Below, one piece after another: positions 12,863 through 63,622 of a DNA stretch of 64,000 nucleotides. Location of the stretch: assembly GCA_050084985.1 (NCBI GenBank), contig JBITNC010000001.1, positions 72,354,001 to 72,418,000 on the forward strand, in the 5' to 3' direction. Both the position numbers and the translations under genes were made by a program. The DNA is from Nageia nagi. Its lineage: Eukaryota > Plantae > Pinophyta. Each line of letters opens with the position of its first letter. Positions within the stretch are counted from its first letter, which is position 1. The notes below the pieces were generated by a model, which saw only the letters and a program-made list of their open reading frames with translations, searched no databases and was not told the origin of the DNA.

Positions 12863-13150
12863 AGTCCGCCCTTCTCAAATTGCTTGTCCTCAAGCAATCC
12901 CAACACCAACTCGACCCTGCTCAGCTGAAACAAATTTAAATCATCTATGATACAAGGATTCCAAACAATTTTACCAAAGAGAACTTTACAAAACTATCCC
13001 AAATCCGTCTCAAGCCTCCATATGCCTCAAAACTGAGTGAAGGTAAGTCTGATTTAACGCAGGCCAACCAAAACTAAATATGAAACATGTCTGATTTCTT
13101 CAATACAGTAGTTAATGAAGACTGTTGAAATCTTCCAAAAATATCTAAAA

Positions 13151-22838: not shown

Positions 22839-22992
22839 TTGGAAGACACCCTAAACCCCCCATGCTTGGTCTTGGTCGGCAGGAAGTGAAGTTTCATGAT
22901 GGCACACATCTCGAGGTCAGCCACTTGGATGGTTGGGATGTATTTTTCTCCATAACCTAGCCGACTAGGGTTTCAAGAAAGCCCACATCAGC

Positions 22993-23000
22993 TATAAATA
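22993..23000 (+). promoter_or_regulatory. TATA box upstream of the E2 ORF
   Basis: gcccacatcagcTATAAATA, identical in E5 (63403-63410), about 200 bp before the ATG. Confidence 0.6.
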
Positions 23001-24381
23001 CCAACTTGGGGACCTTATTTTCCCAAATTCAAATCACACTCTTCTACATTTGCGTCAAAATTGTAGAATTTTGAGTTTGAAATTTGCCTATTTGCTTGGG
23101 AAGGCTTGCGCAAGGGAACAAGGAGGGAGGTGTGGAGGTCACAGGCTTGCAGAAAAGCCAACACATCACCTTGAAAGGTCCTCGACACTTGCTAAAACAT
23201 CATGGCTAGTTCCCAAAGCAATTCGGCCAAGGATTGCGCGAGATCTGGAGTGCATCAGGCAAAGGTGTATCATCACTATATGCGAGCGAGGAGACTCCCT
23301 ATCCCAGGGGGCTAAGTTCTCCAAGAACAGGTTGTGCACTATCGGAGACACAGACTGGCAGAACGTGGATCCAATATAGATGAGAGAAAAGATCAAAAAC
23401 AAGCCATTTAGTGAGTTGAAACAGGATATTGTCTTCTTCTCTGGGCTCTCAAACTGTGCTTTTGTCCCATTCACAACCCATTCTAGAAGTTGGTCAACAT
23501 TGGAAGAAAGGTGAAAGGGTGCTCCGCGACATCAAGGGTGATGTCATCATGGACTTTGGCCTCGAAGGCATTAAGGCCGCATTTTTGTGGACTTCGGAGG
23601 GCAATTTTGAGTATATGGAGGAGCAATCGTTGGCATGATATCGAGACACCAATAGAGCAGCCGTAGCAATCAAGAGTTGGATGTTCGATGAGCACCATGG
23701 CTTGAAGGGTAACACGCTCATCAATGCCCCTTGCTCCCACTTCCATCTCTCCGTCGAATTAACGATCCTCATGTTGTCACGAGTTCTCGGGAAGGAGGAT
23801 GCGTCCAAGTTCTGGAAAGAGTTCTTTAGCTTCATCGTGGAGATAGCCAGGGGGAAGAAGATCAAATGGAGTAAGGTGTTGAGCGATAGCATCATGGACC
23901 AGCTATCATCAGTGGGAACCACACACAATTTTCACCTTAATTCTTACTTGATATACCTGTTGCTCCACAGCAAGCAAAGGCCTACTGCCTTAGGGGAGGC
24001 TGATTTGAACGAGAAGGGAACATATGCTATGTGGAAGTGCTACCCAAAGTGGAAGATCGAGAGGAGATGGGAGAATTTCGCAATGAACTATGATGGATGG
24101 GAATACGAAATCTACAAGGAGCTTAAAGGAGAGATCACTAATTACAGAATCTCCAAGTCATCTAGGATGCGTTGAGGAAACATGGAGACTTATTCGTCCA
24201 TCACCAACATTACTCCTACATTCGTCTCTACGGATCAACTGTGGAGCCATATTAACTACCTCGGTACGTGAGCAACAGGATGCTCCTGATGGAGATGATG
24301 AGGCAGTTGACCTACCTGCATGAGCATGTTTGGCAGAAGAAGTCAGTCACTTCCAATCTGCCAGTCATAGTAGGAGACAAT

Positions 24382-27300
24382 TGTTGGGATGCTTTTCTTT
24401 CATGTGCGGGACACTTTGAATATTGTGGGCGGAACTTAGGAGATCCCAAGCAACATAGTTTGGGAATGCGTGACCAATTCCCTTGGTTAAAAAGGATTGT
24501 GTACCTCCAAGGCTCTTGGCGAAACACCCTGCCCGACGAACCCAACGTCGTGACGTTGTAAGGTTTGTTCGCTTGGTGTGTTTTCTGAATAGGGATAGAT
24601 AAATAAAAAGGTGCGAAATCCCTCTTTGGAATCAGCCTCAATGGAATGGAATGAGAGGTTTGTAGTCTATTAACCAACAATGTTTTATTCTTTGATGTAT
24701 AGAGTTTGTTCGAAACTTTTGTGTGTGGATTTAACGATCAGATTTGGTATGAAAGCATAAAGCAAGCATAAAGAAAGCGTAAAGGCAATACTGTAAAAGT
24801 TGAAGGATGACACCTTGGAGAAAGAAGGGATACTGACGGGAAAGTGTCTAAGAGTTGATCTCTTTCGAATCGGTTAAAGACTCTTCATCCAATTCATCCA
24901 ACCTTACAAGCAAACGACTTAACGTTCGAATTGCTTCTGAAAGGAGCGGGAGGAACGTCAAATGGGTGGAAACGGAAGGTTTCAACATGAGTGGATCATG
25001 GTTTTGGATGAAAGACTTAAAAAGATGTCATAGAAGTAGAAATCTGACATAGAATACCCAATCAACTTGCGTGTTAAGGATTGAGCAACAAGCATAGGTA
25101 GGCTTCAAGCACTTTTAAAGTTTTTTAGAGATAACTTCCCTAAAGCTCATGAGTTTTCAAAGGAATAAAACAAAAGTACACAAACCCACTATGAGTGCCC
25201 TCAAAGAATCAATCAATAACACCAATGTGAAATGTTTGTAACTAAAGTCTTTGCTTTAACCACTTTGTATTAATTTGAAAAGAGTTGTGCAAGGATACAT
25301 CAATTTGCTACTCTCTTACAAAAGTTCTCTCTTCAAGTTTGAAGTGTTTTGCTTCAGAATGAAGTCCTTACAAAAATGAGACCCTTGGTCTCTTACTTGT
25401 AGATTTTGGAAATCCTAAAAATGACTTTTGAAACCCTATAAATGAGTTTCAAAACCCTAACCCTAATTGCAAATTAAAAGCTAATTACAAGCTGATTAAA
25501 AATGCTAAATAAAGATTACAATTGGACTTAGTGGAAATCCACTAACTTAGCCAAATATTTGGCTTACATATCAAAAACTTGCCACAATAGACCCCTTTCT
25601 ATTCTGGCAATTGTGGGAAGATAACTTGCTCGTTTGTGGTGATTTTGGTTTCAAAGTCATCTCCCATGAACGCTTCTACGTTCTTGATGGCATGGTGGAT
25701 TGTCCGGAGGGTTCCTTCATTTGATAGCAGGTTGTCTAGGATGGCCTTATTGGTTTTGACCATTTCTTTGCTCCAATCAGCCAATCTCATCCCTCCTATC
25801 ATCTGTTTTCTTATTTTCAGGTTGTGTGGATCCTCGGAACTATCTGCTCTATGACAGTGGCGTGGATCATTGTCATCACTGTCATATACTTCTTAATGTT
25901 GCTGTTTTCCTCAAACAAGGGTAGTTGGAATTCGTATTACCTTGCCTATTTACTGATGACAACTTTGAGCTGGGTTTTGGTGTATATGAAGTCGAAGGAC
26001 TTGGCTTTGATATAGAACAAGTAATTGTACAGTTGGAACCAATCTATGCAAAAATACAGTACGAAAGGATGATGGGTTGCCCTTCTCCGTAGGTCTAGCA
26101 TTGTAGACTACCCATTCTTCCATCTGATGGTTAATTGGTCTATTTTATCCGCCTGAGAATGTGACCCCTTCTCCTCAATATAAAAATTTACCATGCTTGA
26201 GTGGAGTGCTTTAATGGCCTCAATAAGGTTCTTGGTCCATCCTTGTTTCAGGGCATTGATTCCAGTATTTAAGTCAACCTGCTTTTCGATGTCTTGAATT
26301 GTCAAATTAGCATCCCAGACTTCGTTATCAAGCATTTCCTACCTCATCACTATCTTTTTCAGCTTCCGGTTCTCTAACTTTAATAACGTACCGGATTCCC
26401 TCAATGCCTGTGCATTTGTGATGATGTTGTGCTTCATTCCCAATGGGCTAACAATCTTTGTAGAGGCCTCTTCTCTCTCGATGGTGAGGGCAAACTTTCC
26501 GGTACTAGTTTTGTTTTTCCTTGAGTAAAGCTTGTCCTTGTAGGTGACTTTTTCTTATAGCGGTGATAAAAGTATCAATCTGCTGAAGTTCCTCATTTTC
26601 ATCTTTGGAATCTTCTCCTTCGCGAGGATGATTTGAACTCAAACTGGCCATCACTGCAGCCATGTCAAAGCGGGGTTCCTAAGGTTGTTTTTCGTAGGAA
26701 ACCATCTCTCCGTCTTTGATGATTTCGATGTCATGCTCTACTTGTTTTCTTTTTCTCCTCTGTCCTTCATTTTCTCCCTCATCCTCCTGATTTCCATCAT
26801 CTCCCCTGAAGATGATGCCATGGTCCTGGGTCTTGAAGTAACCTTCTGAGCTTATGTTGTTGTGGTCCTCCAAGATGGTGTGTTTGCGATGCCAGTTTTT
26901 GAGGAGCGGAATTTGGAGTATTTGTTCCTGTTGCTTGTACAATTATATCGACTGAGGGATTGCCTTCGTTAAGGATCTCTACTGAATGATCAGTGGTGAC
27001 CCGCTTAAAGGCAGTATATTTGTTTATCTCCATTTTGGTGTTGATGATTGCTACAAAATCCATCTCTTCATTGGTCTCTGATGAGTCACTTGGTCCATAT
27101 TTATCGGAATTGGATGATGATGTGCAGGGGTTTTGATTCAGGCGCATACCATTCCGATTCAAACCTTGCGGGAGATTTATCTTTTTTTGCAAGTGTTTGA
27201 ATGGTTGAGTGATCAGGCCTGCTCTTCTGAGGTCTAGGATTTCATTCCTCATACTCGTGATAGTTATTTCAATGGTTTGTCTGGGGATGCTATTGGTAGC

Positions 27301-30300
27301 ATACTGCCCATTCTGTCCTTGAGCCAGGGTTACCGAAGGGGATATTATGAGAATAACATACTTGTGGCTCGGGGGTACAATGATCCGTGCATTGGCTCTT
27401 AACCCGGTAGCTTCTTCGGCTTCATGCTGTTTTTGTTCTTTTTTCAGCTCCTTGTGAATTCGTTGAACGTGCAAGGTGTCTTGAATGTTCCTGTACCTCT
27501 CGATGCTACCAAGGGACTGGTGTGGGTATGATGAGCTCCAAGTCTTCTACAAGAATGCATCAATCATTGCATCGGGATCATAGTAATCTGTCAGCTACTT
27601 CTATCAGGAATTCATACAACTCCAGTGCTTGTTTGATCACTTCAATTTGTCGCTAGGTGGTGCATTCATAATTCCTGATGACAATAGGTGATTGGTAAGT
27701 GGTCGCCGCTTTCTTTACCTATATCTTGTCATGTACATTTAGCATCTTGGAAATTCCACAAGGATGATATGATCACTTGGATAATGGGTAGCCTGTAAGG
27801 GGCTTCGTTGGAGCCATAGACCCTGAGGTAGGTGACTTCTATGTCTTCGGCAAAGAAGTCCGCATGTCCCTTGATAGCGGTAGCAACCTCTTTGGATATT
27901 CTGTATATGTTGGCTCTGCCTAGGATTTCTTCGTAAATTTTGCCTTCAAAACGATCGGTTCATCATCGTCTAGTTTCTAGTATTCCATTTATTATGGCAT
28001 AAAAACCGAGGGTAATTTTCCCACACTAGATGTGTAGGGTTGTACGTATACTGGGTATTGTCAATTGAAGTTACCCTTTCCCTACCATGAGGGAGTAGGA
28101 AAACTAGGTAGGATTTCATATAGAATTTCTTGCTCCTCTAAATGTGTTTCAGTTGCTGAGCCAAGGAATCACTAATTACTTTGCTCCACCTAACACCTTT
28201 ACCACTACTGATTAGCTCTATAAACCCCGCAAATTCCGGCCAAAATTTGCTATCATCTTTCTGTTGTCACTTGGAAAGCATGGATATTAGTCTAGGAGAC
28301 TACTGGATAGAACTCTCCTTTATTTGGCGTTGCTAAGGCTCTCCTGTGAGATGCTTGCGGTCATTGGCCAACCAATGTCTGATCAAATAAACTGTAGGTT
28401 TCAAACCCTTGTAGAACTTCAAGGAGTCTTGCATGCTGTATGATAAGCCTTCACCTTTCCATGTGAATGCCCTTTCTATTCCTTCCTTAGAGAAGTCCAT
28501 GATTACCTCGTTTCTTCTATTAGGAGTCTCCGCTTTCAGATGTCGCAATGCTTTCCTAGCTTCGTAACATAGCTCAGGGAAGGGGGTTTCAAATGGCACC
28601 ATAGAAGCTGATAGTAATAAGGAAGTTTTCAAGGTGTCCTTCACTATCGAAAGTTGGATCCAATGTATGTATTTTCATTAGAGTTTTAATTGGATTGAGG
28701 GAGTTACAATTGTATCTCCGATCTCACTCATTGGTCAATGATTCTTGCGATGGGCATCACGGACTCTGACGTATGTTCAAGACTGATAAGACTGTCCATC
28801 GTGAGCCTTTTTTGCTTTCTGTCTTTGATATTCTAGCAACTAACGCCATCTTGTCCGGTCTAAGAGAACAACACAGTGTTAGAGGAGTCTTGGGAAGCTT
28901 GTGGCACTTTCAAGGCAAGCTAAGAGAATTTTTCAAAAATTGGATTTTGGGCATTTTTTTCTCTTGTGTGCCATCATCAAAAAATATCAAGGTTTGCAAT
29001 TTTCAAAGCCTTTGGGTGAGTTTAAGGTGACACAAAGGGAGCTGCCTCAAAGGGTAATGCCTTGGCAAAAATCTTGGATGATTGGAGAATTTTCAAGTTT
29101 TTCTCAAAAAAAGTTGACTTTTTCAATAGGAAAAAGTGGTGAAATTGTGCAAAATTGGCAAATGGTGCCGGAATCAAGTTCTAACAACTTGGATGGGGAA
29201 GGAATGGGGAAGGTGTTTCAAACTTTGAAACGGACTTCAGAAACAATTTTTGGAGTTTTCTGAAATTGTTTTGGATTTTTTTCAAGAAATGAGGATATTA
29301 AGCACTCAGATCTTGGATCTTATGAATTTTTTTGTTTTTTTAGCTGAAAATAAAAGTTGATCACATGGATAAAGGGTATCCAAAAAAGTGATCAAATTTG
29401 AAATTTGGAAAAAAAATAAATTTTCAAGTGTTTGAAGGTTTGAAAAATGAGTTTTTGTGAAAAAAATCCTCAAAACTTGGAGAAAATGGAGTTCATGTGG
29501 ATGGAGGATGCTTGGACTTCGAATTTGAATGGAGTTTGTGGAAGTGGCAAGATACTAAGTGTTTGAAAAATCCTCCAAGGTTGGAAAAATGTCTTCTTTT
29601 CTCACTTGGCGCTCAAATCTCAAAAATTTGGGCAGCATAAAGGTGCAAAAATGAGAGTGAGCAAAAAGGAGGGGGTATGCTTATATGTATAGGTCTAGGG
29701 GTGTCAAAAGTGCCACATGTCACTTCCTATCAACCTTGGAGTTTAACACTTGCACTTTGGACTATTCTCTCTCAAACCCAACATTGGAAATCATGAGAAA
29801 ACTTGGAAAAAAGTCAAAAGCTGCGCCTAGATGGGAAAGGAGCAGATTTGGTGCAATGGGGGAGGTCTTGGAAGCAAAATGATGGCCTTGGAATGCTCTA
29901 CAACCTCCATGCTTCAGATTTGGGTTTTGAATTTTGAGATTTTTGAAGGAAAATCCAAATTTTTTGAGTTTTCTCAGCCCTTAGATCCTTTTTGGATGCA
30001 AAAAGTGGTTTTTAGGAGTTTGTGTGAACCAAATTGCACAAATGATAGATCAAAATGGTGTAGAATCACACCATCTACCTTATAGAAATGAAAAATTGCA
30101 ATTTTGGGCCTTTTAGGGTTCAAGGGGGCTATGTGCAGTTTTAGGATGTTTTAGGCAAGTTTTGAAAAATGAAAAAAATGGGGGATAACTTGCAAAACCA
30201 CGCCTACCTTTTAGGGGGGGAAATTAGTTTTTGAGCAAATTTGCAAGAGGCAAAGATGCTTGCATTTGGATTTTGAACCCAACCTTTCTTTCCAATTTTG

Positions 30301-32321
30301 TTTTTGGGATTTTTGAAATTTCTTGGAAAATTTTGGAGCTCTCCTGATTGGCCGATCCAAATTTTGGGATTTTGAGAGAGTTGATCAACTTTTTTCGAAA
30401 AACTTAAAACATGAAAGAGATGCAAAGTTGGATTTCCCATACTCCTAGGATCAAAATTTTTGATTTTTGAGGAAACATGAGGGCTTGCAAGCTAGGGTAG
30501 GTTTAAGGGGCTTTGACATGTTTTTTGGAAATTTAGAAGATGGGGGAAACAAGCCAAAACTGACCGCCTAGCTTTTTGATGGGGTAAACTTGATTTTTTT
30601 GCAACATTGCAAGAGGAAATGTTGATCTCCTTTGAATTTTGCACCCTACATCACTTTTCTTTTTTTATTTAACCATTTTGGAAAATTTTGAGCCCTCTCA
30701 TTGGTCAATCGAAATTTGATGATTTGAGGAGGTAGATTTCATTTTCTTAGGAAAGTCAAATCATGAAACTTGTGTGGAATCCCATCTTATACCCTTGAAG
30801 GTCAAATTTTCAATTTTTTTCAAATTTGGGGCACAAGAAGGGTAGGCGCAGGTTTTAGGATGTTTGGGGTGTTTTGAAGATTTTAAAAAATGAGGAAAAC
30901 ACCTAAAACTAGCGCCTAGCTCTAGGAGGGTCAAAATTTGCTCAATTTCAAAAATTCCAGGAGGAAAGGTGCCTAATTTTTGATTTTCCACCCTACTTCA
31001 TTCTTAAATTTACATTTTTGACACTTTTGGGAATATTGGAAATCTTGGAGCATTTTCATTGGCTGCCTTTTTGCTCATTTTCCCATTTTTCTCATTTTCG
31101 ATGGAGCAAAACTCATCCAAATCGCGAACTTGAAAGACCAATTTGATGTAGAATTGTGATCCCCACGCTCCTGAGATCAAAAATTGCTATTTCGGATCAA
31201 TCTGGGCCTCCCAAAAGGTAGGCGCAGGTTTTGAGGGGAATAGGCTATTTTTTGAAATTTACTAAGTGAGGGAAAACTTGCAAAAGTCCCCCCTAACTTT
31301 TCGGAGGTCAAAAATCAATTTTTTTTGAAATTTCCAAGAGTAGAGTGGCCTTAATTTGTCATTTGGCACCACATCTCTCTCTCGGATTTTAATTCTGAGC
31401 ACTTTGGAAAAAACTCTATTTTCGGCTCAAATCGAAGCTTTTCAGAGGCCAAAACGCTCATTTCTTCATCTTGGCCCACAAGGGTGCTCAAACTTGTTTT
31501 CCTTATTCATTCCTGGCTATACTGTATATTCCTTACCTTCTTCGTCTTTTGCATTTCCGGCATTTTCGGGCTCTAAGTATGAATTTCGACCATTTTTGGC
31601 TTTTTCGAACATTTCCTATCTCGAACGGTGAAAAAAGGTTATTTTCAGCAGTTTCGGTATTTCAAGCTCAAAGTCTTTATTTTGGCCTTTCCAAACTCAA
31701 GATATGCAAAAAGCCTCATTTCTTGCCTTTCCGGGCATTTTCAAGCATTATGAGCTGAAACTTGCATTTTTGGTCATTTTCGAGTTTTTCGGGTTCAAAT
31801 CGTGCAAAAACGCACATTTTCAGCATAGTGACCACTTCCAAGCTCAAAATTGACCAAAATGCGCTTTTCCATGCTATTGACCATTTTCTGGCTCCCCGTG
31901 CTCAAAATTGACAAAAACATGCATTTTTGTCATCTTAACTGTATCCACTGCTTTTAGGCTCAAACTCGATGAAAAATGCACCTTTTGTCGTCTTGGCGCC
32001 TTTGTTGCTCAACTTTTCCAAAATGACACTTTTTTTGCCTTGATGGCCATTCGCTCAAAACTCCACTGTTTGGTTGCTGTCGCAATCCAAAACTTCGTCC
32101 TCTAAGATACTGCTCGAGACTAAGCCCTGACTTGGCCACTGGTTGAGTTGAATTGTTTCCATGACTTCGAGGCATGCTCGTGCATTGTTTGATCAATTCG
32201 CCATTTTGTGTATCCATATCGGTCATAAGTTGATCATGCCTAGACAATGTTGCTCATTGCTGTTTGAAAAAATTAGATCCTCAAAATGTTGCTACTTGGA
32301 GTGTGTTATGTGGGTGCAACA
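24382..32321 (-). mobile_element. Giant TG..CA element, copy E3 (7.9 kb), nested in the ORF of E2
   Basis: Minus strand starts tgttgcacccacataacacactccaag and ends aaaagcatcccaaca. TSD acaat/agaac (3 of 5 match), and excision restores the host reading frame exactly. Confidence 0.85.
25599..28849 (-). pseudogene. Family ORF of E3, decayed, ~1080 codons
   Basis: SMVPFETPFPELCYEA, VIMDFSKEGIERAFTW, HVQRIHKEL, KYVILIISP and WTKNLIEAIK; colinear with the E4 ORF. Confidence 0.8.
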
Positions 32322-35031
32322 AGAACCAGTGTAGAGTTGGGGCGGACCTGGCTTCCATGATAGATGAGTTGGGAAGGTACAAATTCGAGAAGATGCTGAC
32401 TGTTAATCACTATGACCCTGAGCACCGAATCCATGGCTTCTATATGGAGAGGAAGAGAGCCTATGAGCATAGGCCACTTAGAGATGAGGAGCCGTTTTGA
32501 AATGTCAGCATTGAAGTGGAAGTGAATTCGTGCCAAGATGCAAGAGGAGGCTCAGAAGCAACAATGGGAAGTAGAAGCATCAATTCATAAGAAGTTGTCC
32601 TGATCTCGGGGAAGGAGACCACAAGAATCTACCTCTAGGGTCACCCAGTTTCCACTAACGATTGAGGAACCCATTGGGCAAAATGCGTCCATGCATGGGA
32701 AGGTTCCCGTTGAGCAGGTAGCACAATAGGTAAGGAAGACATTTGATGAACATGATGTGAGGGAATTGGAGCATGTGGCCACCAACAAGGAACTGAGATG
32801 TGCGAGAAACCAGAGACCCGATTCGTCTCCACCCAAAGGCCAGCGAGGACAATAGTGTCACGTCCGTCTTAGACCATTCCATGATGAGGGTCAAAGTCCT
32901 CAAGCGATTTATATGAAGACCATGGCACTCCTCATGAAGAACAAGAAGATGGACAGCGAGATGATGATCGACAGAGTATGCTTGAAGAGGGGGAGTATGA
33001 GAGCATTCCGAAAGATGAGTTAGATGAAGGGCCAGGAGATGAGCATGCAGCTAGTACTATTCTTGAAAGAGACATACCGGATGCATAGGGTGAGGAAGAA
33101 CCGTCATTGGAGATCTTGAAGGAAGTCCATAACCACGCGACTTCAGTACCTTCAACATCTGAAAGGAAAGACCAAGATCCTACCTCGAAGTCAATACCAA
33201 GAAGAGCCCAACTGAAGAGAGGGTCTCAGTCCAGATTGTCAACAACACTCGAGGAGATTGCGGGGCAGAATGAAAGATCTTTTAAGAAGATCCAAGCAAC
33301 ACCGTCACCATCACCGAAGCAGTGGGGTGTAGACATGGACGAGTGCCTCAATGTCTTCAACATGGACATGGGGGATTGATAATTTGACAACTTAATAGAA
33401 ACTTTGCTGTGCCGAATTTCTCTTAAGTGTTAAAAGTGGTGTATGTGGATGCTATTGTGATTATGTACTTGTTCATGTTGGAATAGTGGATGTGAATGAA
33501 TGTTAGATAGTGCTATCTATGTTTATTCTATCATTGCTTGATATTAGTTCAATTGACTTGGTGCATCTCCTAAACTTCATTGAGGTCTATGAGAGCTTGC
33601 TTGCTTATCTTAAGAAGTAGTTGATTGGTATCTCGTGGATGATCTTTCACTATTTGCAGTATTTGGTTGGTAGTCTTGGGATGTCTCACTAACATTGTTC
33701 GTTGTCGGAACTTCATCCCGTTCCTTTTGTCTTACCTCGATCCCATCCTATCTCATTGCCCTAGCTTCACGCTCCATCTACTCAGCTATTCGTGTTGTTG
33801 GCTGGTGGATTGGATAGTGGGTGCCTAGAACCTGCATTGAACCCAAGTGAGTTGGCTTCCAAGAGTCTTTACCAATCCCGTGAGCTTGTATGCCCACTCT
33901 CACATCCTGTCCCTACAGTCTTTCCACCATCTTTTCTTTCTTTATTTTCTTTTATTTTACACTCTCTTTTCGCAATTTTCCCACCCCCAATTTTCCCTTT
34001 TCAGCATTCAAGAAACAACCTTGATAAAGCCCAGACGCAAAACTCAAAGTCCCTTGAATTCACACATGATATTGATGTTGGTGGCAGCTCTAAACATCTC
34101 AACCGTCTCCTGGGTTATCCTTACATAGTCCACGAAGCCAACCTTTGCGGTAACTACTCCCCATAGCGGGAGGGAGTAATGTCCCTCTACCTGAGGTGTT
34201 GGCGTTTCTCCCACTACTTTCGGGTAGGAAAGAAAAACACCCCAACTGTTCCAACTGTCTAAAAGGCTGAAAATATCATGTGAACATGTATGATGGCAAA
34301 TGTACCAATTGTCCTCATTTTCTTTTGCAATTTTTCTGATTTTTAAATCAGATTTATTGGCTACAAAAAAGTTGGAATTTTGCACCATTCTATCCACATA
34401 TAAGACTTCAAAAGTCCACTCCAAATACCAAAACTGAATCAGCAATTTGTAAATCCATCAAAGCCACAAAAAGAAGTGAAAAGATGCCACGTATGGCTAT
34501 GAAAAAGTATCTCCTTTTGCAATGTTCCATGTGAGAAGTGTTCTACACCACCTACCATGCATCCACATGAGAAAAATCAACATTTTATTTGAAGGAACCA
34601 TGGCTGTAGTAATTTTACCTTTACATAGCAGAATATATGAAATGTCAAGTGATTGTCCTCCTCCCATGAGATGAGTATGAAACATGTACCATGGCTGAAT
34701 ATGCTTGTGCTTCTCTCCTCCAAAAGAACTCTTACCATATATGAAAAGAATTCTTGGATCCCATGCATTTAAAGGTTGATCACAATTCTCAAGTGCAATT
34801 GATCTTTCCCTCACAAAACTCTTCACACAAGGAAAGCTAAGGCCATTATGATCACAATTATTTAAGGGCTTAATTTGGAGTTCTAACCCATATCTCTCCA
34901 AACTTTCACAAACTGAAAATTCTTCAACACCCATTTGTATCTTTCCCATAAAGTATGCAAAAAACAAATCTGAAACATTCTCTAACTCTTTTCCCAAATC
35001 ATGAGCATCATGTTTCTCATTGAATTCATTC

Positions 35032-35544
35032 TCAACATGTGTAGGTATAAATGTACAAAAGAAAGTATTTTGGTTCTCTTTTTTGATATACCGTAAGTGG
35101 GAGATGAGCATCTCTATCACGAATCTCTTGAGTGAAATCAATCATGCTAGATGAACCATGCTCCATTGCTAAAATGTCTTCAATACCTACATTTTCTTCA
35201 AAATTTTCTGTTTGGCCCTTTTCCTCTTTTTCAATGGTAGGAACAACTTCAAAATTTTTTGCACAATTCTCCTCAATCTCTTCTTTTTGATGGAAAATTT
35301 CAGCTTTCTTTGCTTTTCCCAAAGTTGATAAACCATCTTGACCATTAAAGATGGAAATGGTCATTTTCTGTTGCAATTGTCTTTTTTCCCTCTTAGGTTC
35401 ATTGGTTCCATTTTGTTGCATGCTTGCCCTTTTTAATGTCACTATCTCTTGCCTATTTGCTTCCTCTAATGTCACCATTTTTTGCATCAAAGCAGTCATT
35501 GCATCCAACTTCTGCTCATTCTCTTTTCTCCTGAATAGTTCCAT
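35032..35544 (-). pseudogene. gag-like N-terminal ORF of element A
   Basis: First substantial ORF after the PBS. Coiled-coil start followed by KMTISIFNG, resembling the gag K-x-T/x-x-P-x-FDG motif; gag similarity is then lost. Confidence 0.45.
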
Positions 35545-36310
35545 GGTCCACTCTTAGCAAACATCAACCTTCAAAACCCTATTTGTGCAATTCCTGAAAA
35601 ATAGGTCATAAATCATAGGAAATTCTAGATTTCATATCAACAAAAATTTCAACATCTTTTTCTGAAGGTGGCAATGAGAAGTAGAGCTTAATGTGTTTTC
35701 AAATTTACCCTACAAATACCTCCAACTGACTAAAACTTCAAAAACGTCACCTTCCTATTTTTCCTTTGAAAAACCCTTCTAGAAGCTTAAAACGGCATGC
35801 AAAGCGCTCAAAAATGCTCCTAAGGGTCGGGTACTTGACTTAGCATATTGAATCTGATTCTAAGAGTCCAAAATCCACCCTAAATGACCTCCTCAAAATA
35901 GGGTTTCCTGATATGGATGAATTTGAGGTTTCTTTTTCTACAACCAATCAAATCACAAAAAAACCCTAAATCTGAAATTTCTGAAATCTTACCCAAAATT
36001 TTTTCTAAAATCATAGATTTGCAATTTGGCCAAAACGTATCCAAATTTGCAATTTTTAATTTTAAAAAAAAATCCCTAAAAATCTGCGATCCCTAAAAAT
36101 CCGCGATTTTCACTGGGGCATAAATTTTCACCACAGAAAAACACATTTCAACATGAATTTGAAATACCCACAAAATTTTTTTGAAAGCCCTAATTTTTTT
36201 GAAAACCTTAATTCTGAAAAACTCTAAAATTGAGATACCCACAACTGCCAAAACTTAGAAAAAAATAGACACTAACGATAGGCTGGCAAGATTCCAGCTC
36301 TGATACCACT

Positions 36311-37105
36311 TGTAATGTCCCAAAAATGGAATTACAAAAATACAAGTATAGAAAAAATACAGAACTGAAATATTACTCAAAAGACACCCAAGAATGAGTA
36401 ATAACTAGCCAAGAGAATATATTAAAAATATTGCAAGACAATACATGCGCTGGAATAACCAAGGGCATCCACAAAATAACATCAAAATGCAGATATAACA
36501 CCTCCAAAATGCCACGAATCTCCTTGGGACTATTTTTGTGTTTTTAGGGCAATCACACCTTCAATGAAATTGCCAAAGATCCCAACCATGCACCTTCAAT
36601 GCACTTTGGGGTGAGCAAGACCTTCAATCTTCACTCAAGGAAACTCAAGGGTTTCGGATTTCAATTTCAATAATATCAATAACATACCCAAAATGGAGCG
36701 TTGCATCTCCTTATATAGACTCCATCCCTAATCTTGCATTGACCCCTGTAAGCTAATTTAAGCCATTGATTGGCTTTATTACAAATAAAAGTACTTAAAA
36801 TAACATTAGAATAACATAAAAGCTTATTATATTCCAACATTGCATTTTTAAGTAGAAATCCACTAAGTTAAGTGGATTTTTGTGTGTGGGCACGATATGG
36901 AAAACTGGTCCCACTGGTGAACTTGAAGTAGCCATAACTCCTTCGTTTCTTATCCAAAAGGGATCATGTGACCACTTAAAACAAATGCCATGAGATGCTC
37001 TATCCAATTCTGAAAGTGCAACAACCATATTTGACTTGTAGAAGAAGAGATTTGTGGAAAATCCCAAATACAAGATATTCTCAAAAATAAAATAAGGTCA
37101 TTACA
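36311..37105 (-). repeat. 5' LTR of element A
   Basis: TG...CA termini; followed on the minus strand by PBS TGGTATCAGAGC. Confidence 0.9.
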
Positions 37106-37141
37106 CCCTGGGAGAACTTACCTCTTAAGCTGAATTGTCAC

Positions 37142-37932
37142 TGTAATGACCCTATTTTTTAGAATATCTTGTATTTGGGATTTTCCACAAATCTCTTCTT
37201 GTACAAGTCAAATGTGGCCGTTGCACCTTCAAAATTGGATAGAGCATCTCGTGGCATTTGTTTTAAGTGGTCACACGACCTCTTTTGGACTAGAAACGAA
37301 GGAGTTATGGCTACTCGAAGTTCGTCAGTGGGATCAATTTTCCATATCGCGCCCACACACGAAAATTCACTTAACTTAGTGGATTTCTACTTAAAAGTGC
37401 AACGTTGGATTATAATAAGCTTTTATATTATTCTAATGTTATTTTAAGTACTTTTATTTGTAATAAAGCCAATCAATGGCTTAGATTAGCTTAGAGGGGT
37501 CAATGCAAGATTAGGGTTGGAGTCTATATAAGGAGATGCAACGCTCCATTTTGGGGATGTTATTGATATTATTGAAATTGAAATATTGAAACCCTAGAGT
37601 TTCCTTGAGTGAAGATTGAAGGTCTTGCTCACCCCAAAGTGCATTGAAGGTGCATGGTTGGGATCTTTGGCAATTTCATTGAAGGTGTGATTGCCCTAAA
37701 AACACAAAAATAGTCCCAAGGAGATTCATGGCATTTTGAAGGTGTTATATCTGCATTTTGATGTTATTTTGTGGATGCCCTTGGTTATTCCAGCGTATGT
37801 ATTGTCTTGCAATATTTTAATATATTCTCTTGGCTGGTTATTACTCATTTTTTGGGTGTCTTTTGAGTAATATTTTAGTTCTATATTTTTTCTATACTTG
37901 TATTTCTGTAATTTCGTTTTTGGGACATTACA
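37142..37932 (+). mobile_element. Solo LTR of family A (791 bp), inverted relative to the adjacent 5' LTR
   Basis: tgtaatgaccc...gggacattaca with perfect TSD GTCAC (37137-37141 and 37933-37937), inside gag of element B. Confidence 0.93.
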
Positions 37933-38269
37933 GTCACCTTGTGTGGCATGGGATGTTGAAGCTTGTTGTGCATGGGAACATGTTGAGGAGCCATGAGAGC
38001 CAAATGACGGATCATTTATTCCATCAGTGTAGTCATTATTGACCAGTAAAAATACCTGCAATGTTATCCTCAAATGCATTTCTTCTCCTTTCATCATCTT
38101 CAATTATTTTACTTTCTTCTTCCTAATAGTCATCACCTTTGTTTCCCATATCTCCAACCAGATTTGAACTTTGCGATGATTGGTAGGGCATGATCTATTT
38201 CTCCGTAGGTTATATTAATGGTGTATTAACTGTCTTCATAGGTTGATTGAAAACCAGCTTTGATACCAT

Positions 38270-39312
38270 TGTAAGATCTCTAACTAGAAAATCCATAAAT
38301 TTTACAAATAGAAATCAGTATTACTTAGATATTTTTTACCATAAATTCTCAAAATTGCCAGATCAATCTCCACAAATTTTATTAAAATATTTTGAAAGTA
38401 GCATCACAATCTAGGGCACTCAAGGTATATAAAAATTGCTCCAACAGTATAAAGTAATATGTCTAGAAATGGGCACTCCACTTTAAGAGGCAAATCAAGT
38501 CTGAAAAGCACACAATAGGCCTCCAAAACTGGGCACTCCACGCAAGAGGCCAAACCTAATCTGAACACAGACATATCTGGTCTCAAATCTGAAAACACAC
38601 TGATATGGTCTGAAATCTGTCTACAAGCTCTAAAATATGTCCAAGGAGATGATCGCTCCTCCCTAAAATGCTCGATCTTCAGATTGATGCTCAAACTTAT
38701 CTAGAAATCTCTCTTCTTCAACAATAAAGCACAAATGTAAACCTTGGATGGATTTACCATAGAAAATACAAGCTTGTTCTTCCTTAAGCTTACCACCAAG
38801 AGGTTGGCCTTCCTCTAGGGTTCTCACTCCAATAGGTTTTCAAACTACAGAAGGAATAGAGATTGCTGCTCCAACAATGTTCTCCCAAAATATTAGTTGT
38901 AAAATTATCAAAAGCCCCTTACAAATGAAACCATTTCTCACTTATCTAGACAAATAACCCTTGTTGGTGATGAGATCTCAGCCACAAGATGCCAAGATCA
39001 ATTACAAAGGCCAAATGGCAGTTACAAAATCTCCATCTAGGAAGACTTAGTTTGACTTTAGTAACTCCTAAATATGCTAAGATCAGTTACAAAAGCTAAA
39101 TGGCAATTACAAATGCATTAAGACATTAAATAATGCCTTATCTTTATGACCACACATTCCTAAAAACAAACGAAAACACACCTAACCTACCTATGCACTA
39201 CCAAACACTTTATTTTCACCAAAACACCACGAACTACTGGAAAAGGGTGGACATCACTCTCCAAGAGGCATATTTGCATTATTTAAGCACCAAAATTGAA
39301 AGAGACATTACA
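38270..39312 (-). repeat. 5' LTR of element B
   Basis: Minus strand tgtaatgtctc...gagatcttaca, immediately followed by the PBS. Confidence 0.75.
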
Positions 39313-39799
39313 CATCCCAAATGATATATTAGAATGTTTCAGGGAATTTATTTGGAAGAGACTTCGTTTTCACTACTTGAAGAGGTAAACATCCCACATC
39401 TTGTCCTGTTCAATGTAGCCATTCACAACTGTCTGGTATATTGTAGGGACAGACTCTTGGATGCCAACAAACTCTTATGATCAGTGGGGATGTTCGTTTG
39501 TCATGTTCCTTTTGATAACATTCTTCTGTCCTTATATTTCTGCACCTTTGAAATGAATTATCAGATAATTAAATCATACTATATCCTGGAATATATCATA
39601 TCTCTTTTAAGTAATTTCATGTAGTATATTCTGAGGCCTTGTGTGCAGTGCTCTACAGAAGCACCTGAAATCACATTGAAACAACACCTTTTTTTGTAAG
39701 CAAAACAACATGAATAAGTATTAAATAAAAAGTAATAATACAAAGGTTGCCAACACAGGTTTGTCTACTATGTTAGAAAGCTTGGTGAGCAAAACATCC

Positions 39800-42700
39800 T
39801 ATTGTTCCCGCATAACACACCCCCAAAAATACAAGATTTTGGGTACCGAATTTTTGCAAATATGGGAATCCAAGTTATACCAAGTTCATGAAATGAACTA
39901 GCTAGGATGACTTGAGGGTTGATTCTTAGCAGTCTTAAGGGATGATATAATGGAATGGTACATGGCGGTTATCTGCTGGGATTCCTTGGGAGATTCAAAG
40001 TATTCAGTCAACAGTTTCTTTGAGACCACGACTAGTTCAGGATGATCAAGTGATGAAGATATACACGTAGTGAGAAATGTAAAGTGTGGATTCATTGTGA
40101 ATTCAAAGTTTGGGGACAAAGGTTGTAGACAATTCAAAATGAGACACATTTAAGCTTGGAACCTCTCAGTTTGGATCAAAGATGCTCCCTAGAGGACTAA
40201 GTGAAGAATTTGGGGTCTTAATGCCTTCAAGAGGAATGGAGTTGTGCTTACATTGAAAAGACAGTTTCTCATACAAGTTTGATGGAAAATGTGTAGATAC
40301 CCTCAAGAGAAGCTTGGGAAAAGAATAACATTCAAACTTGTAACTTTTCAATTTCCTCCAAAGTTGCTCATTCCCTCTCCGGGGGCAGTTTTTTGTGGTT
40401 TACTCATTCAAAGAGAGAAAACATGTGCCTAGCAAGACCATGCACACAAGAAATCTCAAAATTGCAAGTTGACCGATCAAAATTGTGGCATGTGGGTATG
40501 GTTGGAAGTCATGAAATGAGCATTTTTGCTCTTGAGAATTTCGAAAATACATTAAAATCACCTCATGGAGACATAGGTGCAGATTTTAGGAGTTTAACCC
40601 CCCTAAAAAGAAATAATGTGCGCCTAGATTGTTTGTGCACTTGTTTTTGAGGTTTACCAAATTGAAAAACTAAAACTTGGGTGTTGTAGAGCTAGGGAAA
40701 TCATGCAATTTTGGTCAAGCAAGCACATAAGAATGGTCAAAATTGTGCCCAAGAAGACTAGGTGCACATTTTCTAGTTTATCTCATTTCAAGCAAAGGAA
40801 AAACTTGCACCTTACAAAAGATGGGTCAAATCTTTGTCAAGATTGCAAATTGAAGGCATGATGAGGTGCACAATCCAATTCCATACGAGATTGATCTTGG
40901 AATCATTCAAAAGACCAAGTTTAACCCCTCCAAATCATGGCGCACATTTCTAGGCTATAGGGGTGGTAATGCTTTGAATTTCATGAGTTTTGTGGAATTA
41001 ACATCACATTTCTAGGCTATAAGGTTGTTAATTCCACACGAGATTGATCTTGGAATCATTCAAAACCCCTCCAAATTTGAAGCACTCCATCTCTAGCAAC
41101 CATGAGTTTTGCTTGGAAATGATGATAAATGTGCCCAAGTTTCAAAATATCCCAAAGTTTGCTTTTGAAAGACCTCCCCCTTTGAGTTGCTAATGCTTCC
41201 ACTGCTTCAATTTTCCTCAAAAATGCTTAAAACTTCACAATACTGACATCCTTGATGGCACACTTGGAATTAATTCTTAAAAATTCCAAAATTCTAGAAA
41301 ATTTCTTTTTTTCCTAGAAAGTTCACAAAAGCTTCACAAAGACCCTCTAATGGTATGTTATTCATATGATAGGGTTACTATGACATTTGTCGTTAGGAAT
41401 ATCAAAGAGAGGAAACAAGCGAGACTAAAGATGAAAAGCCCCATTGAGTTTGAGAAGATGGCGAAACTCTACAAGCTATTGCAAAATTTCAAGATCACTT
41501 AAGTGAGATTGGAGACATTCAGTTCTCCAACATTGATCCGGTGCAACATTGATGAAGATTCAATTGATGAACCAAGTTCACTATCTCAAGACAGTTTGCA
41601 ACAATCTCTTTTGGTGGAACCATCAATGATACCATATGCCTCCCCTCTTCCAAGACTTTGTTATGAAGTGGGTCAATATTGCAACTACGCCACAAGAATC
41701 CTTTTTGATAGAGGTGGCAACAAAATTATGGACTTCACATAAGCAAATATTGGAAACGCTTTCGCTTGGACAAGTGAAGGCATATCATACAAAGTACAAG
41801 AATATTTGAAATTCTATAAAGATTTGAAGCCTCCAAGTGACTTAATCAAATATTGGCTGGCAGATGATTGCAAAAACCTCATGGGAAAAGCCTTGACTTA
41901 GCCTAAGAGGGGATATTTGTATCACACAGTGTCAAAGATCATAAGTATGCTATCAAGGGTGATTGGACAAAAGGATGAGTCGATGTTTTGACTAGAGTTC
42001 GTAGGATTCATTGATCAAATCAGTTAGGGCAAGGGCATACATTGGAGTAAAGTCATTAGTGCTTGCTTGGCTTCAAAATTAACCAACGTTAGGGTAGACA
42101 AGAAGTTCTATATGAACTCTTACTTGGTGTTCTTACTCATTGATGGTAAAGAAAGAAGAACCACCATTGCCAATACTAAATTCTTGTATGATCCTCTACA
42201 TCCTATTGGGAAAGCTACCAATGATTTTTGGTGCAAAATAGATGGATTGAAGACAACTTGAAGATGATGAATGGAAGCTTTGAGTGCCGAATTTATGATG
42301 AGATCAAAGGCATAAGGAAGATGTTCAAGATATTAGATCAAGCTATCGCAGCTCTCAAGGGAAATGTAGACTTTTACTTGCAGGACCCAAACCTCACTTA
42401 CATCAGGGTATATGGTTCGAAGGAAGCTTCGTGGAAGCGACCCCATTTTGCCAGTGATCGACTCATCCTCGTGGAATTCTCAAGGCACTTGGTGAATGTA
42501 CATGATAAGGTATTGGCTAAGAAGGCTTCTTCTACATATCAATTATTGATTATCATGAGAGGATATGAATGTACGGGTTGGTATCAAATTCCATTGATGA
42601 GACGCAAATTAGTACTTAATCATTTTGAAACGAAAGTGGTAGCAAATCAATATGATCCAAATGGGATGATTGATGCCTTTTCCAGAAAAACTTGGCAGTC

Positions 42701-45388
42701 AACTTACCCACATAAGTCCCTTGATGACATTGAGAGATATAGAAATATCCGTGATCATGTAAAGATTCAAAGGATACATAGAGAATTAACTTAAGAGAAA
42801 AAGTAAATACAAGAAGCTAGGGAGAGTAGCAGGCACTAATCGCCAACACCAATTGAAAGGTCCCCAAAGCATGCATATGTCATTCCGGTTATATCACCCA
42901 CAATAGCTTTGGCATAGATGCGAAACATACAATATGGTACTATGAGTGTTCTTGAGCAAACTATCAATACTATTGAGTGTCAAATGCTATCAACAACTTA
43001 AGAGAGGCTAGCTTGATTTCATGCCCACTTGTTCATCTTTAAAAAGTGGTGAGTCATCCAAGTGGTTCAAGGCAAAACGTTGCACATCATCTTTCGAGTC
43101 CCTCGAGTTCATCTTCCAGTTCAACTTCGAGCAAATATGGCACAGATACCAATGCAACTAGTTCAGATGGTGAAATAATTTTTGATGCAACTATAAATAC
43201 TAATATTGATATAGATCAAGATTATATGTCCGATAGGGTGGAAATTGAAGACGCAAGAAATTTTTTTATTGAAGATAATTCCATGATTGGTATAGCTATA
43301 CAAGAAGCTGCAAAACCTTCAGCTTCAAAACCCACTACACCTAAGAGAGCATCTAAAGGACCTCCACATGCAAAGAAGACTCCTGCAACAATTCGGCAAG
43401 GTAGTTTTAGACCAAGAGGGATAACATATTCATCGGGAGGAGATGAAGGAAACAAAGAAGAAGGAGAGAATGACAAGAAACACAAAAAGAGAAGGCAAAT
43501 AGAGCATGGTAGCAACAGTAACAAAGATAGAGAGATGGCTACTTGTAAAGAGCTTCAAAAGGAGTCACGTTTTGATATAACTGACTGTAGTTTTGGCAAA
43601 TCTGAGGGAGAATGACCCTTTTTAAGGAGAATAATTTGAAGATGAAAATGATGAACTTCAACAAATTGACACCCTTACCACTACAATAGACAAAGTCAAC
43701 CACAAGGATACACTCTACTTTGGAAAGACCAAGGTCGACATTGGTAATTTTGCTCACTACTGAAGTTGAAGAAACGCCTACTAAAATAATTGGTCCATTA
43801 GGAATGGAACATACACTTGTCACTATTGCTAAAGCATTGAGAGAGTTGGGAACCCAAAAGAATGTACAAATCAAGGAATTGAAGAAAAAAGTGGCTAGCC
43901 AGGAAAAAGGTCAAATAAGTGGAATTAGCTCACCTTACTGTTGAAGACATTAGGAAGCAAGCAAATTTAAACACTAGAATTTCTGCAGTAAAAAGAAAGT
44001 GGACCAAGAGCTTGGTTGATGCTATCAAGAAACTTTTCTTGAATATAGCAAACTTCATTGAAGAAAATGGTTCACTGACTCACTCAGGATGAAAGGCATG
44101 AAAATTTGATCAATAGGTGGAGAGAAATTTTCTCTATCATGCATGATCTAAGGAGAAGGGCGTCTCTCAAACTAGCTACTCTCAATTATTGTTATGATTG
44201 GTTTCACCTATATGATCATATACATTATATCAAGGTCAAAACTCATGATTTTATAGTCAATTTTATTTTAGCATTTTTTGCTATATCTAGCCAAGTTTTA
44301 GCTAACTTAGTGGAATACCACTAAGTCGGAATGTAATCTCAATTAGCATTCAATTAACAATTAATTAGCTTTTGATTTTGCAATTAGGGATTAGGGTTCC
44401 AAAATTTCTATAAATATGGGGCATGGGGTCTCATTATTGTAGGAGCTCAATTCTTGAGAAAAGAAATTTTTTGTAAAGTGAGAGCAAACTTGTAAATTTT
44501 TGCACAACTCCTTTTACAATCAATACAAAGTGGTTGAGTTAAAGATCAATGTTGATCATACAATTTTGGTATTATGAGTTGAATCTTGAAGGGCTTTCTT
44601 AGTTGGTTTGTACACTATGGCATCCTTCCTTTCAAAACTTTCGAGTTTTAGGGACAATATGATTGCATTATTTTACTAAGTGTTTGAAACTGATCTTTGA
44701 TAGTTGCTTAATTCATACCATGCAAGTTAGGCAAGGTATTCTAAATCTGTTTTCACTTTTATGATATGAAACTAGAATTTTCATCCAAACTAAGTTCTTC
44801 CCACATGTTCTTCCAACGCGTTCATTTGATTGATTTGGTCTGTTCATGCAAGTATTAACAGTCAGCTCTACTTCAACCTCCTCTTTGAAACAACTCGAAC
44901 TATAGTTGTTTGTTTGCAAAGTTGGATGACTTGGATGAAACTTTCTTGACTGATCCGAAAGGTACGAACTGTTAAGACAATGCTTTGTTGTGTTGATTAG
45001 TTTGGTATCTGACCAAGTATTCTGTTTCTTTCTCAAAATGTAGTTTCTCAATTAACTGTATTGCCTTTAAGCTTTCTTTTAGGCTTTCAAAAAATCAAGA
45101 CAACTTCTAAATTTGTACACAAGTGTTACAGATAAAATCTATATATAATATGTTGGTTAACAGTTACTATCTCTAAACATTCCATTCGAGCTGATTCCTG
45201 AAGAGAAAGACTTCAAAAGATAAGAAAGACTTGCATAGCATTCATTTGTTTGTTTTGCAGATTTCTCAGAAACCTTGGGGTAATCAGTCTTTACAAGCGG
45301 GGAATAAGTGATGCATTTTCACCTAAGATGCTGGGCAGTTTTCACCTCCGGTGATTTAGAGTTATGAGGGGAGTAATTCTTCCCAACA
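39800..45388 (+). mobile_element. Giant TG..CA element, copy E4 (5.6 kb), with ORF
   Basis: t(a)ttgttcccgcataacacacccccaaaa...ttcttcccaaca with perfect TSD CATCC (39795-39799 and 45389-45393). No internal direct repeat, PBS or PPT. LTR-like TATA (ctataaata) at ~44408. Confidence 0.9.
41380..44255 (+). pseudogene. Family ORF of E4, decayed, C-terminus deleted
   Basis: SPLPRLCYEVG, KIMDFT, KFYMNSYLVFLL, TYIRVYGSKE, SDRLILVEFSRHL, YDPNGMIDAF and HKSLDDIERYRN, then a Ser-rich linker. Confidence 0.82.
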
Positions 45389-46482
45389 CATCCCTAACCT
45401 GAGATTGTACAATTGGGTTTTACAGATGTTGATTAATTATTTTCAATTCTTCATAGTATAAGTTATTGATTTCTTACATCCCAGAGTTCTAGCTTTTCAT
45501 GTAAGGCATTGGGTTTTTCATGGTGGTTGATCTGTACACCAGGAGGTCCAGTGGACAATAAGGAAGAAAAATAGTGGCAAAAGAAACATAGGAATTGGAA
45601 TGCACAGAAGTGTACAAATGGATGGTCGCATAGTACAGCATGCACAAATGGATCTTATTTCATTATTCACAAATGTAGTGTATTTTTACACACGTTCTGC
45701 TGACTTCATTAAATACATGTTGAACATCTACCTAGCTTGGAGGCAGGTGGATAGGTACAAAGGTAGATGAATAATTAAAAAATAGATGTTGAGGATAAGT
45801 GCCTGTCAAAAGGTTTAAATGTTCAACCCTTATTAATAAATGAGGGTAGGTAACCTTGTAAATCACAAGTAGGTCCACCGGATCACTGGTTAATCTTTTG
45901 TGAAGATGATGTCTGGTGATGATAATATTCTGCTAAGTAAAGGAGGATCCTGTGCTTGCTATATGTGCCAAGCCTTGTACAGCCATCTGGAACTATTTTT
46001 AATTCGTCTTATTATGCAGACTTGGGAAAGAATTAAACATTCAATGATATCGAAGATGAGCTAGAGACGAATGATGCTAGTGCATTATTCCACATTATAA
46101 ATTTAGTTTAAGAAGGCATGGAAATTGGACAAGAACTGACTTTGTAATAGAATATTGTTCTTATTAATATTTTTTCCCCACTTATGATGGTTTACGAGGC
46201 ATCCCACCATGTAAACTCGATTCTATTCATTAATATTCTGTTTGATATGTTAGTTATGGAATGCAAATCTGAAGTTTATTACATTGGGCATTTGAGAGTT
46301 CACTATTAAAATAACATACTAGATCATGTTCCTATTATTATATTCTGTTTTATACAAACCCTCTTTTAAGTGCTTTGTGCTATATTTCTTTAGAAGGATC
46401 AAGCAAATTTTGTCTATGCAATGTTGTATTTTTTTAGTTTCATTTAAATGCAAGACATTAAAAGGATTTGATTATCTTGTAG

Positions 46483-61964: not shown

Positions 61965-62289
61965 AGTCTACTCTCTCAAATTGTGTCCCTCAAGCACTTC
62001 TAAATGCATCTGTTGTGCCTTACACAACTCGCCCCCTAAATTTTGCAATTTCGAGGACCCTCGACAATCTGGAGCCTTGAATGTCAAGTCAAAACCATTT
62101 CCCCTTGTCTCCAGTAAATCCATAACCTGAAATTGAAGTGTAATCGCCTATCCAGCCCTAGCCATCTCAAAGCGTATAGTAAAACCTCATAAATTAACTA
62201 AGTCTGGCTGAGTGTAGATCAAGGTCTAAGTGGTATAGGGAAGTCCAAGTCAAGATTCAAGCTGAAACGAACGGACCCAGGCTCCTCCT

Positions 62290-63250: not shown

Positions 63251-63622
63251 CAAAAAACCTCAGAATCCCAACGATTGGTCCCGGACGGTCAGGAATAAGG
63301 TTTCAAGATGGCACACATCTTGAGGTCGACCACTTCAATGGTTGGGATGTGTTTTCCTCCAAAACTTAGCCAAACTAGGGTTTTAAAAATGCCCACATCA
63401 GCTATAAATATTAACTTGGGGACCTCATTTTCCCAAATTCAAATCACACTCTCTTCTACACTTGCACTGAAATTGCAGATTTTTGAGTTTCAAATCCATC
63501 CATTTGCTTGGGGAGGCTTGCGCAAGAGATATAGGATGATAGGAGGAAGACGTGGGGGTCATAGGCTTGCCAAAAAAAAGCAACACATCACCTCGAAGGG
63601 TCCCGTCATTTGTTAGGGCATC

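Follow-up and report, generated by a model that had tools for sequence, protein, structure and literature searches.

Is a stretch of DNA with the ends left by a retrotransposon integrase, one large open reading frame (ORF) and no gag or pol a whole long terminal repeat (LTR) left by a larger parent, or a mobile element in its own right? The question is raised by 64,000 nucleotides of the Nageia nagi genome (contig JBITNC010000001.1, positions 72,354,001 to 72,418,000; hereafter the window), where an earlier note had described a family of such units with TGTTG..CAACA ends and 5-bp target-site duplications (TSDs). The feature is real, and the two-way framing, whole LTR or single-unit element, stands. 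We favor, with a probability of roughly 0.55, the reading in which the units are solo LTRs of a Tat/Ogre-type gypsy element whose LTR took in an accessory gene, with a product that is predicted to have the VANC/PMD fold and would prevent silencing. The window is repeat-rich, and units and stubs of the family make up ∼49% of its length.

Single units and their ends

The members fall into three subfamilies, A, B and C, and are laid out as follows.

39800..45388 (+), focal unit, subfamily C; 5,589 bp, TATTG..CAACA, perfect CATCC TSD at 39795-39799 and 45389-45393
39800..39848 (+), conserved 5' terminus of the focal unit; TGTTG(TG), variable loop and CACAACA as a hairpin-like arm, then CACCCC-AAAA and ATTTTG(G/A)GGACCC
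45360..45388 (+), 3' terminus of the focal unit; purine tract lying 8-10 nt in from the end and followed by CCCAACA
21612..34247 (+), subfamily A unit hosting the nested unit; perfect GTTCC TSD, end CAACT; ∼4.7 kb minus the nested unit
24382..32321 (−), nested unit, subfamily C; 7,940 bp, TGTTG..CAACA, degenerate TSD (3/5, ACAAT/AGAAC); ORF relic ∼28731-25985
14352..20936 (−), subfamily B unit; 6,585 bp, TGATG..CAACA, TSD absent (1/5); ORF relic ∼19150-15750
478..4173 (−), ORF-less subfamily C unit; broken by the 1-477 unit and by a 600-bp gypsy LTR piece (2667-3268)
1..477 (+), subfamily C 3' end; inserted in unit 478-4173, 84% identical to the 3' end of the nested unit
9055..9118 (−), 5' terminal stub; a match of ∼64 bp only, lodged in RNase H sequence of a gypsy pol unrelated to the family
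62011..64000 (+), subfamily A 5' part; palindrome array 62422-63235, TATA at 63402, start of an ORF relic

The perfect TSDs claimed for the focal unit (CATCC) and for the unit at 21612-34247 (GTTCC) are both present, and excision of the nested unit does restore the frame of the unit around it, the ORF relics on its two sides being in register. As family traits, the 5-bp TSD and the TGTTG..CAACA ends hold less uniformly: the TSD copies agree at 5/5 bp in two of four units, but at 3/5 in the nested unit and 1/5 in the 20936 (−) unit, and the terminal sequences are exact in the nested unit, whereas the focal unit starts with TATTG, the subfamily B unit starts with TGATG and 21612-34247 ends with CAACT. 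Two boundaries have moved. The subfamily B unit, previously bounded at 14492, ends at 14352, a position fixed by a match to metagenome locus L003, and the fragment given as ∼8950-9118 is a 5' stub of the family but matches only over 9055..9118. Termini of the TG..CA type with a TSD of 4-6 bp, as in solo LTRs, are therefore found in the family. The subfamily A unit at 21612-34247 is without ∼1.4 kb that locus L005 has. Contigs from a skim run (X1) cover the focal unit, with a depth of zero in both of its flanks, and end sharply at the 3' end of the nested unit. Locus L003 has, at 2821-2849, the 3' end of a subfamily B unit ∼30 bp from the 5' end of a subfamily A unit, the two being in tandem, and three units of the window also sit inside or beside other family members.

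Ten 5' termini, seven from the window and three from metagenome loci, align as TGTTG(TG)-loop-CACAAC(A/T)-CACCCC-AAAA..ATTTTG(G/A)GGACCC. The shared terminus proposed earlier was recovered at all seven 5' ends in the window, but its one-base spacer was not: the spacer is variable, and the literal pattern with a single base found only two matches at three mismatches. Folding of nine termini gave a hairpin within the first 24 bases of five, at about −5 kcal/mol and with a loop that varies. Eight 3' termini are alignable over ∼130 bases and finish with a purine tract and (C)CCAACA.

We found neither paired repeats nor the usual retrotransposon signals within or beside the units, in agreement with the earlier description. 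Direct similarity between head and tail did not exceed that of shuffled sequences in any of four units (scores 32-39 against shuffled maxima of 37-45; an LTR pair used as a positive control scored 1381), and inverted similarity was also at shuffle level (28-38), so that terminal inverted repeats (TIRs) were not found. A profile scan covering 150 of the 174 stop-free stretches of at least 58 residues inside the units detected no reverse transcriptase (RT), RNase H, integrase, gag, transposase or DDE family; outside the units, where 96 of 136 stretches were scanned, RVT_1, RNase H and protease were recovered. Primer-binding site (PBS)-type TGG within 8 bases was absent from all 18 termini in both orientations, with a control gypsy LTR positive; these termini comprise 12 from the window and six from five metagenome loci (L001-L005), the relatives found among 244 metagenome pattern matches. 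No internal LTR pair, PBS, polypurine tract (PPT) or gag/pol was therefore found, as in a solo LTR. A 12/15 purine stretch beside the 3' end of L005, PPT-like in reverse orientation, is no more than chance would give among 18 flanks, and we did not take it for a PPT. The sequence TGGTATC at 45003 was considered as a Met PBS and rejected, lying 380 bp inside the unit with no preceding CA; no tRNA genes were found.

These data bear directly on the view that the units are old non-autonomous retroelements like large retrotransposon derivatives (LARDs), or deletion derivatives, in which the ORF is internal and the paired LTRs are very short or diverged beyond recognition. Extra ORFs and repeat arrays are indeed normally internal in Tat lineages, and the 3' purine tract together with the 18-21 nt 5' arm TGTTG..CAACA might be taken for a PPT and a very small repeat. 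However, head-tail similarity is at shuffle level in 4/4 units although copies of the same age keep 62-84% mutual identity, and neither is the purine tract followed directly by TG nor the 5' arm by a PBS. Paired LTRs enclosing a PBS and a PPT, the hallmark of LARDs and of terminal-repeat retrotransposons in miniature, were not observed, and we regard this explanation as improbable.

The decayed ORF, its predicted fold and candidate target arrays

The ORF, described at first as of unknown nature, can now be placed. Two of its relics are the following.

41436..44255 (+), decayed ORF of the focal unit; ∼940 codons with stops and frameshifts, profile E-values as low as 4.6e-66
23257..24381 (+), subfamily A ORF relic, N-terminal part; resumes at 32327 past the nested unit, 71% identical to P0001

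The focal ORF consists of an N-terminal part with a predicted VANC/PMD fold, a charged linker and a helical C-terminal part, the coiled coil there being judged from composition alone. Structural modeling makes it very probable that the product has the VANC/DUF1985/PMD fold: the sole structural match was to VANC21 of the element VANDAL21, across the whole domain (PDB 9LNK) and at 7-8% sequence identity, and atlas leads also point to the VANC/DUF1985/PMD clan. This prediction links the ORF to the PMD-coiled-coil accessory ORFs of Tat/Ogre elements. By sequence, none of 27 and none of 87 family members reached the Pfam cut-off (Pfam PMD at E 0.023 only), and Foldseek against the PDB and viral models, as well as PDB sequence searches, gave no matches. 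Named protein relatives come from Taxus chinensis and Cryptomeria (two of the ten clusters looked up had names), which together with the giant intron suggests a gymnosperm source. Pattern matches in viral contigs (94) and prokaryote genomes (395) contained no relatives, and the terminal motif had no match in the viral contigs; nine matches to it in bacterial contigs (L006-L014) were taken as chance. A Cryptomeria relative (P0103, XP_057824563.1) is an annotated mannosyltransferase isoform that opens with ∼70 residues of the family's transposable element (TE) protein, which is either exonization or a gene-model artifact.

One large ORF per unit, as claimed, is what the full units contain, but unit 478-4173 has none and every copy is broken, the longest open stretch being 190-249 residues. 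The ratio of nonsynonymous to synonymous substitution rates (dN/dS) is 0.06-0.20 in six of nine copy pairs and saturated in three, with frames taken from the best tblastx segments, a choice biased toward coding-like alignments. Differences between copies are mostly synonymous, and the gene was therefore maintained in the lineages that produced the copies; past purifying selection on the ORF is shown at the level of sequence.

Subfamily A comprises 21612, 62011 and L001-L005; subfamily B comprises 20936 and part of L003; and subfamily C comprises 39800, 24382, 478 (the unit that has lost its ORF) and 1. Within each, the 5' non-coding part, the ORF and the 3' part are co-inherited. DNA identity is 62-84% within subfamilies and almost nil between them, termini excepted, and the ORF relics are 35-55% alike between subfamilies. 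The non-coding parts carry candidate promoters and motif arrays.

22992..23000 (+), CTATAAATA preceded by a telo-box; 5' of the subfamily A ORF and the gene's own candidate promoter, at the corresponding place in L001 and L003
44385..44440 (+), telo-box with CTATAAATA at 44408; 981 bp from the focal 3' end, a candidate downstream promoter
21890..22830 (no strand), subfamily A palindrome array; ∼40-bp palindromes with core AAAGACAA-N4-TTGTCTTT, candidate binding sites, with 7 copies spaced at 114 bp or its multiples

The combination of telo-box and TATA is a candidate for the TATA-type promoter that a solo LTR should carry. It lies 5' of the ORF in subfamily A (telo-box and CTATAAA, 1330-1420 bp from the 5' end); subfamily B has CTATAAATA 5' of the ORF, with TATA at 19644 and an opposite-strand TATA at 15315; and in subfamily C the patterns used found no TATA-type site upstream of the ORF. 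A second TATA-like site lies 870-980 bp from the 3' end in all three subfamilies; in two C units it reads forward, and in A and B it is found on the opposite strand. Because the direction of the TATA differs between subfamilies, there are two options: the gene lies in U3, or it is antisense in a long R/U5.

Full palindromes number seven in the 21612 unit and six in the 62011 unit, at 114-bp spacing or multiples of it, and subfamily A half-sites occur 8-12 times per 1.4 kb, compared to 0.1-0.2 expected. The AAAGACAA-N4-TTGTCTTT palindromes are absent from the 5' regions of B and C; subfamily B has CTTTTGCAY five times (0.1 expected), and enrichment in subfamily C is weaker. All of these array motifs were picked after inspection of the sequences.

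VANDALs likewise pair a gene with arrays of motifs in their non-coding sequence, and the only structural match being VANC21 adds to the case that the units are non-TIR Mutator-like (VANDAL-like) DNA transposons, reduced to a VANC-type gene and its target arrays and moved in trans by a Mutator-like element (MULE) transposase. MULEs make TSDs of ∼9 bp. Those of the units are 5 bp, with TG..CA ends, and no unit scanned holds a transposase relic; neither a ∼9-bp TSD nor a MuDR transposase was observed. VANC has, moreover, been reported as dicot-specific, and the same fold is also carried by gypsy elements. We consider this origin highly improbable.

Solo LTRs or a unit without a parent

In the reading that we favor, a full-length parent of more than 15 kb, arranged unit-PBS-gag-pol-PPT-unit, would have been copied by RT and inserted by integrase, and recombination between its two long LTRs would have left one LTR. 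The LTR of this parent had likely taken in the element's accessory gene, whose product would bind the unit's own palindrome arrays and so prevent silencing, and each solo copy would retain the full promoter-gene-target cassette until it decayed. Taken separately, a solo-LTR origin is probable, and we favor it because it needs no new chemistry and fits the link to accessory ORFs. Membership in Tat/Ogre is suggested. The anti-silencing role, with binding to the candidate palindromes and an effect on methylation or Polycomb silencing, is a prediction to which we give slightly less than even odds. Of the two possibilities named in the earlier note, the anatomy fits a whole LTR-like unit with a self-promoted gene, and no finding contradicts either this or a single unit moved in trans; the ORF has been placed, and may lie in U3 or antisense in R/U5.

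Paired PBS-gag-pol-PPT context was found at none of 18 termini and none of 12 skim flanks, a small sample and a weak skim test. The chance of seeing no paired context is 0.0002 at a solo:intact ratio of 1, 0.04-0.07 at ratios of 4.3-5.5 and 0.2 at 10, computed with four units free at both ends and ten single ends as draws; the window was itself selected for the pattern. Long LTRs, old age and an intronic site are expected to raise the ratio. In spruce, a conifer study detected no correlation of this kind. Published ratios are 4.3 for Ginkgo and 5.5 for Taxus wallichiana (PMC9364684), 2.8 for Cupressus (10.64898/2026.07.23.736688) and ∼0.13-0.25 for Pinaceae (PMC5751070). The missing parent, called striking at first, is less so because five units share one intron and because the ratios for non-Pinaceae gymnosperms are 2.8-5.5.

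The solo-LTR reading must also be weighed against a parentless element. In that case the unit would be a lone cassette of promoter, gene and target, never paired and bounded by integrase-type ends, and the enzymes of another element would copy and insert it in trans. Two observations count against solo LTRs here: no PBS or PPT adjoins any of the 18 termini in either orientation, six of which come from metagenome loci not chosen for that property, and three subfamilies whose proteins are 35-55% alike are all present as single units. The conserved 5' hairpin arm with its variable loop, the internal purine tract adjoining the 3' end, the promoter candidates on both sides of the ORF and the ORF-less derivative (478-4173) would also suit a parentless cassette. 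However, we know of no route that copies a unit without a repeat, PBS, PPT or transposase. Taken without the rest, the six independent ends are not unusual (P 0.35-0.42 for ratios of 4.3-5.5), and the window was chosen for its single-unit pattern and is mostly one intron. Nor does the skim run carry much weight: 12 of 45 contigs exit the 3' end into dissimilar flanks, but junctions sharing a PBS would collapse to one contig, depth at the terminus is 70, compared to 906 just inside, and one contig of 2,403 nt extends 2.3 kb beyond the 3' end of the unit. An agreement simulation excluded a common flank in at least four of ten contigs, a result of little weight because contigs do not count copies. 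We therefore consider a parentless element unlikely, and more doubtful still its fuller form, in which gymnosperms harbor 5-8 kb cassettes encoding only a VANC-like anti-silencing protein and carrying their own target palindromes, a class that spreads in trans and has split into subfamilies, each with a protein matched to its motif.

Known systems share parts of this anatomy. Retroviral LTR genes such as MMTV sag and HIV nef lie within the terminal repeat and survive in a solo LTR; unlike the unit ORF, they are short, belong to vertebrate retroviruses and have unrelated functions. Tat/Ogre (OTA) gypsy elements, including gymnosperm TatIII and Ogre (PMC4408406, PMC6317226), resemble the units in their 5-bp TSD, TG..CA ends, multi-kilobase LTRs, nearby repeat arrays and one accessory ORF of the PMD clan (predicted for the units) with a helical C-terminal part. 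In those elements the ORF is flanked by the LTRs, on the 5' or the 3' side in Ogre and antisense on the 3' side in TatIII, whereas that of the units lies between the termini of one unit, and the units are without gag/pol, PBS, PPT or a significant sequence match to Pfam PMD. Tat/Ogre PBS types are tRNA-Arg, His, Asp or Asn; no PBS of any kind stands beside the 18 termini. The lineage is also defined by RT phylogeny and an additional RNase H domain in pol, but no pol with a link to the family came to light. The VANC system of VANDAL21 (PMC5735166; PDB 9LNK) shares the predicted fold and the placement of a TE protein beside family-specific short-motif arrays in non-coding DNA, but VANDALs, which have been reported from dicots, are transposase-bearing DNA transposons of the Mutator-like kind, the proteins are 7-8% identical, and the motifs of the units are long palindromes that are candidate sites only. 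By analogy, the family may work like a VANDAL-style gene-plus-target cassette in an integrase-inserted unit. The antisense ORFs of Retand and Grande (PMC7264820, PMC11963269) likewise have their own promoter, family-specific arrays and a proposed nuclear DNA-binding role, but are internal (pol-3'LTR), encode a Transposase_28 domain, accompany LTRs of 315-1,194 bp and occur in angiosperms only; the first paper assigns additional ORFs to the internal region (PMC7264820). Ginger/GingerRoot elements (PMC6839031) are also single, with TG..CA or TA..TA ends and integrase-like insertion, but have a DDE enzyme, TIRs of 100-150 bp (GingerRoot) and TSDs of 4 or 6 bp; neither a DDE integrase-like ORF nor TIRs were seen in the units.

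The link between the PMD and VANC folds and the PMD ORFs of Tat/Ogre are already in print. Apparently new are the ORF inside one TSD-flanked unit and the palindrome arrays: a literature search, with Repbase, the REXdb element files and most subscription papers outside it, found no plant retrotransposon whose LTR contains an ORF, no palindrome arrays in such a unit and no account of the family. Such units would be missed by LTR finders because they form no pair, and by domain-based annotation because they have no Pfam match. If our reading is correct, the LTR is a self-contained promoter-gene-target cassette. The coding life of an element normally ends when a solo LTR forms; in this family that event would leave behind many copies of an anti-silencing gene that still works, here within a host intron. 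The PMD-type accessory ORFs of plant gypsy elements, long unexplained, would also acquire a concrete function, and VANC-like systems, described from DNA transposons of dicots, would be extended to retroelements of gymnosperms, with a named motif as the candidate target.

Host gene and neighboring repeats

Domains of the gamma-tubulin complex proteins (GCPs) were identified with Pfam at 7.5 kb and at 50.3-50.9 kb, and translation joins the exons into one gene (window 7480-53280, +), which we take to be GCP4-like, Pfam itself naming the N- and C-terminal GCP domains only. One of its introns holds five of the eight family units.

8316..46482 (+), intron of the GCP4-like host gene; 38.2 kb, GC-AG, context only and outside the definition of the element

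The donor of this intron is GC, not GT.

The gypsy pol at 9.1-10.9 kb and a gag-like relic at 34.5-35.5 kb were considered as remains of a parent and rejected: they belong to a separate family with 800-bp LTRs and a Met PBS at 36308, into which units have inserted. The decayed protease-RT-RNase H region spans 9094-10934 (−), its RNase H truncated at 9118 by the 5' stub. Two 800-bp LTRs of this kind lie head to head, 36 bp apart (36310-37105 and 37142-37932). Copies at 12066-12862 and at 2667-3268 resemble them at 88-93%, and one of the pair is followed by the Met PBS at 36308 (−). Just past the 3' end of the subfamily B unit is a 365-codon stop-free frame (13151-14248, −) with no Pfam match, which could represent the antisense strand of a TE gene in decay.

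Among the metagenome loci, L004 (1-2200) contains inverted, 100%-identical pieces of itself and is likely an amplification or assembly chimera, so that only its 3' terminus was used. Locus L002 (2680-4952, +) carries a relic of a long interspersed nuclear element (LINE)-like endonuclease and RT beside an oppositely oriented family 5' end. Finally, a small repeat family with ∼99-bp stretches that are 86% alike occupies positions 4175-5309 of the window and is also found in L001 (2696-3156).

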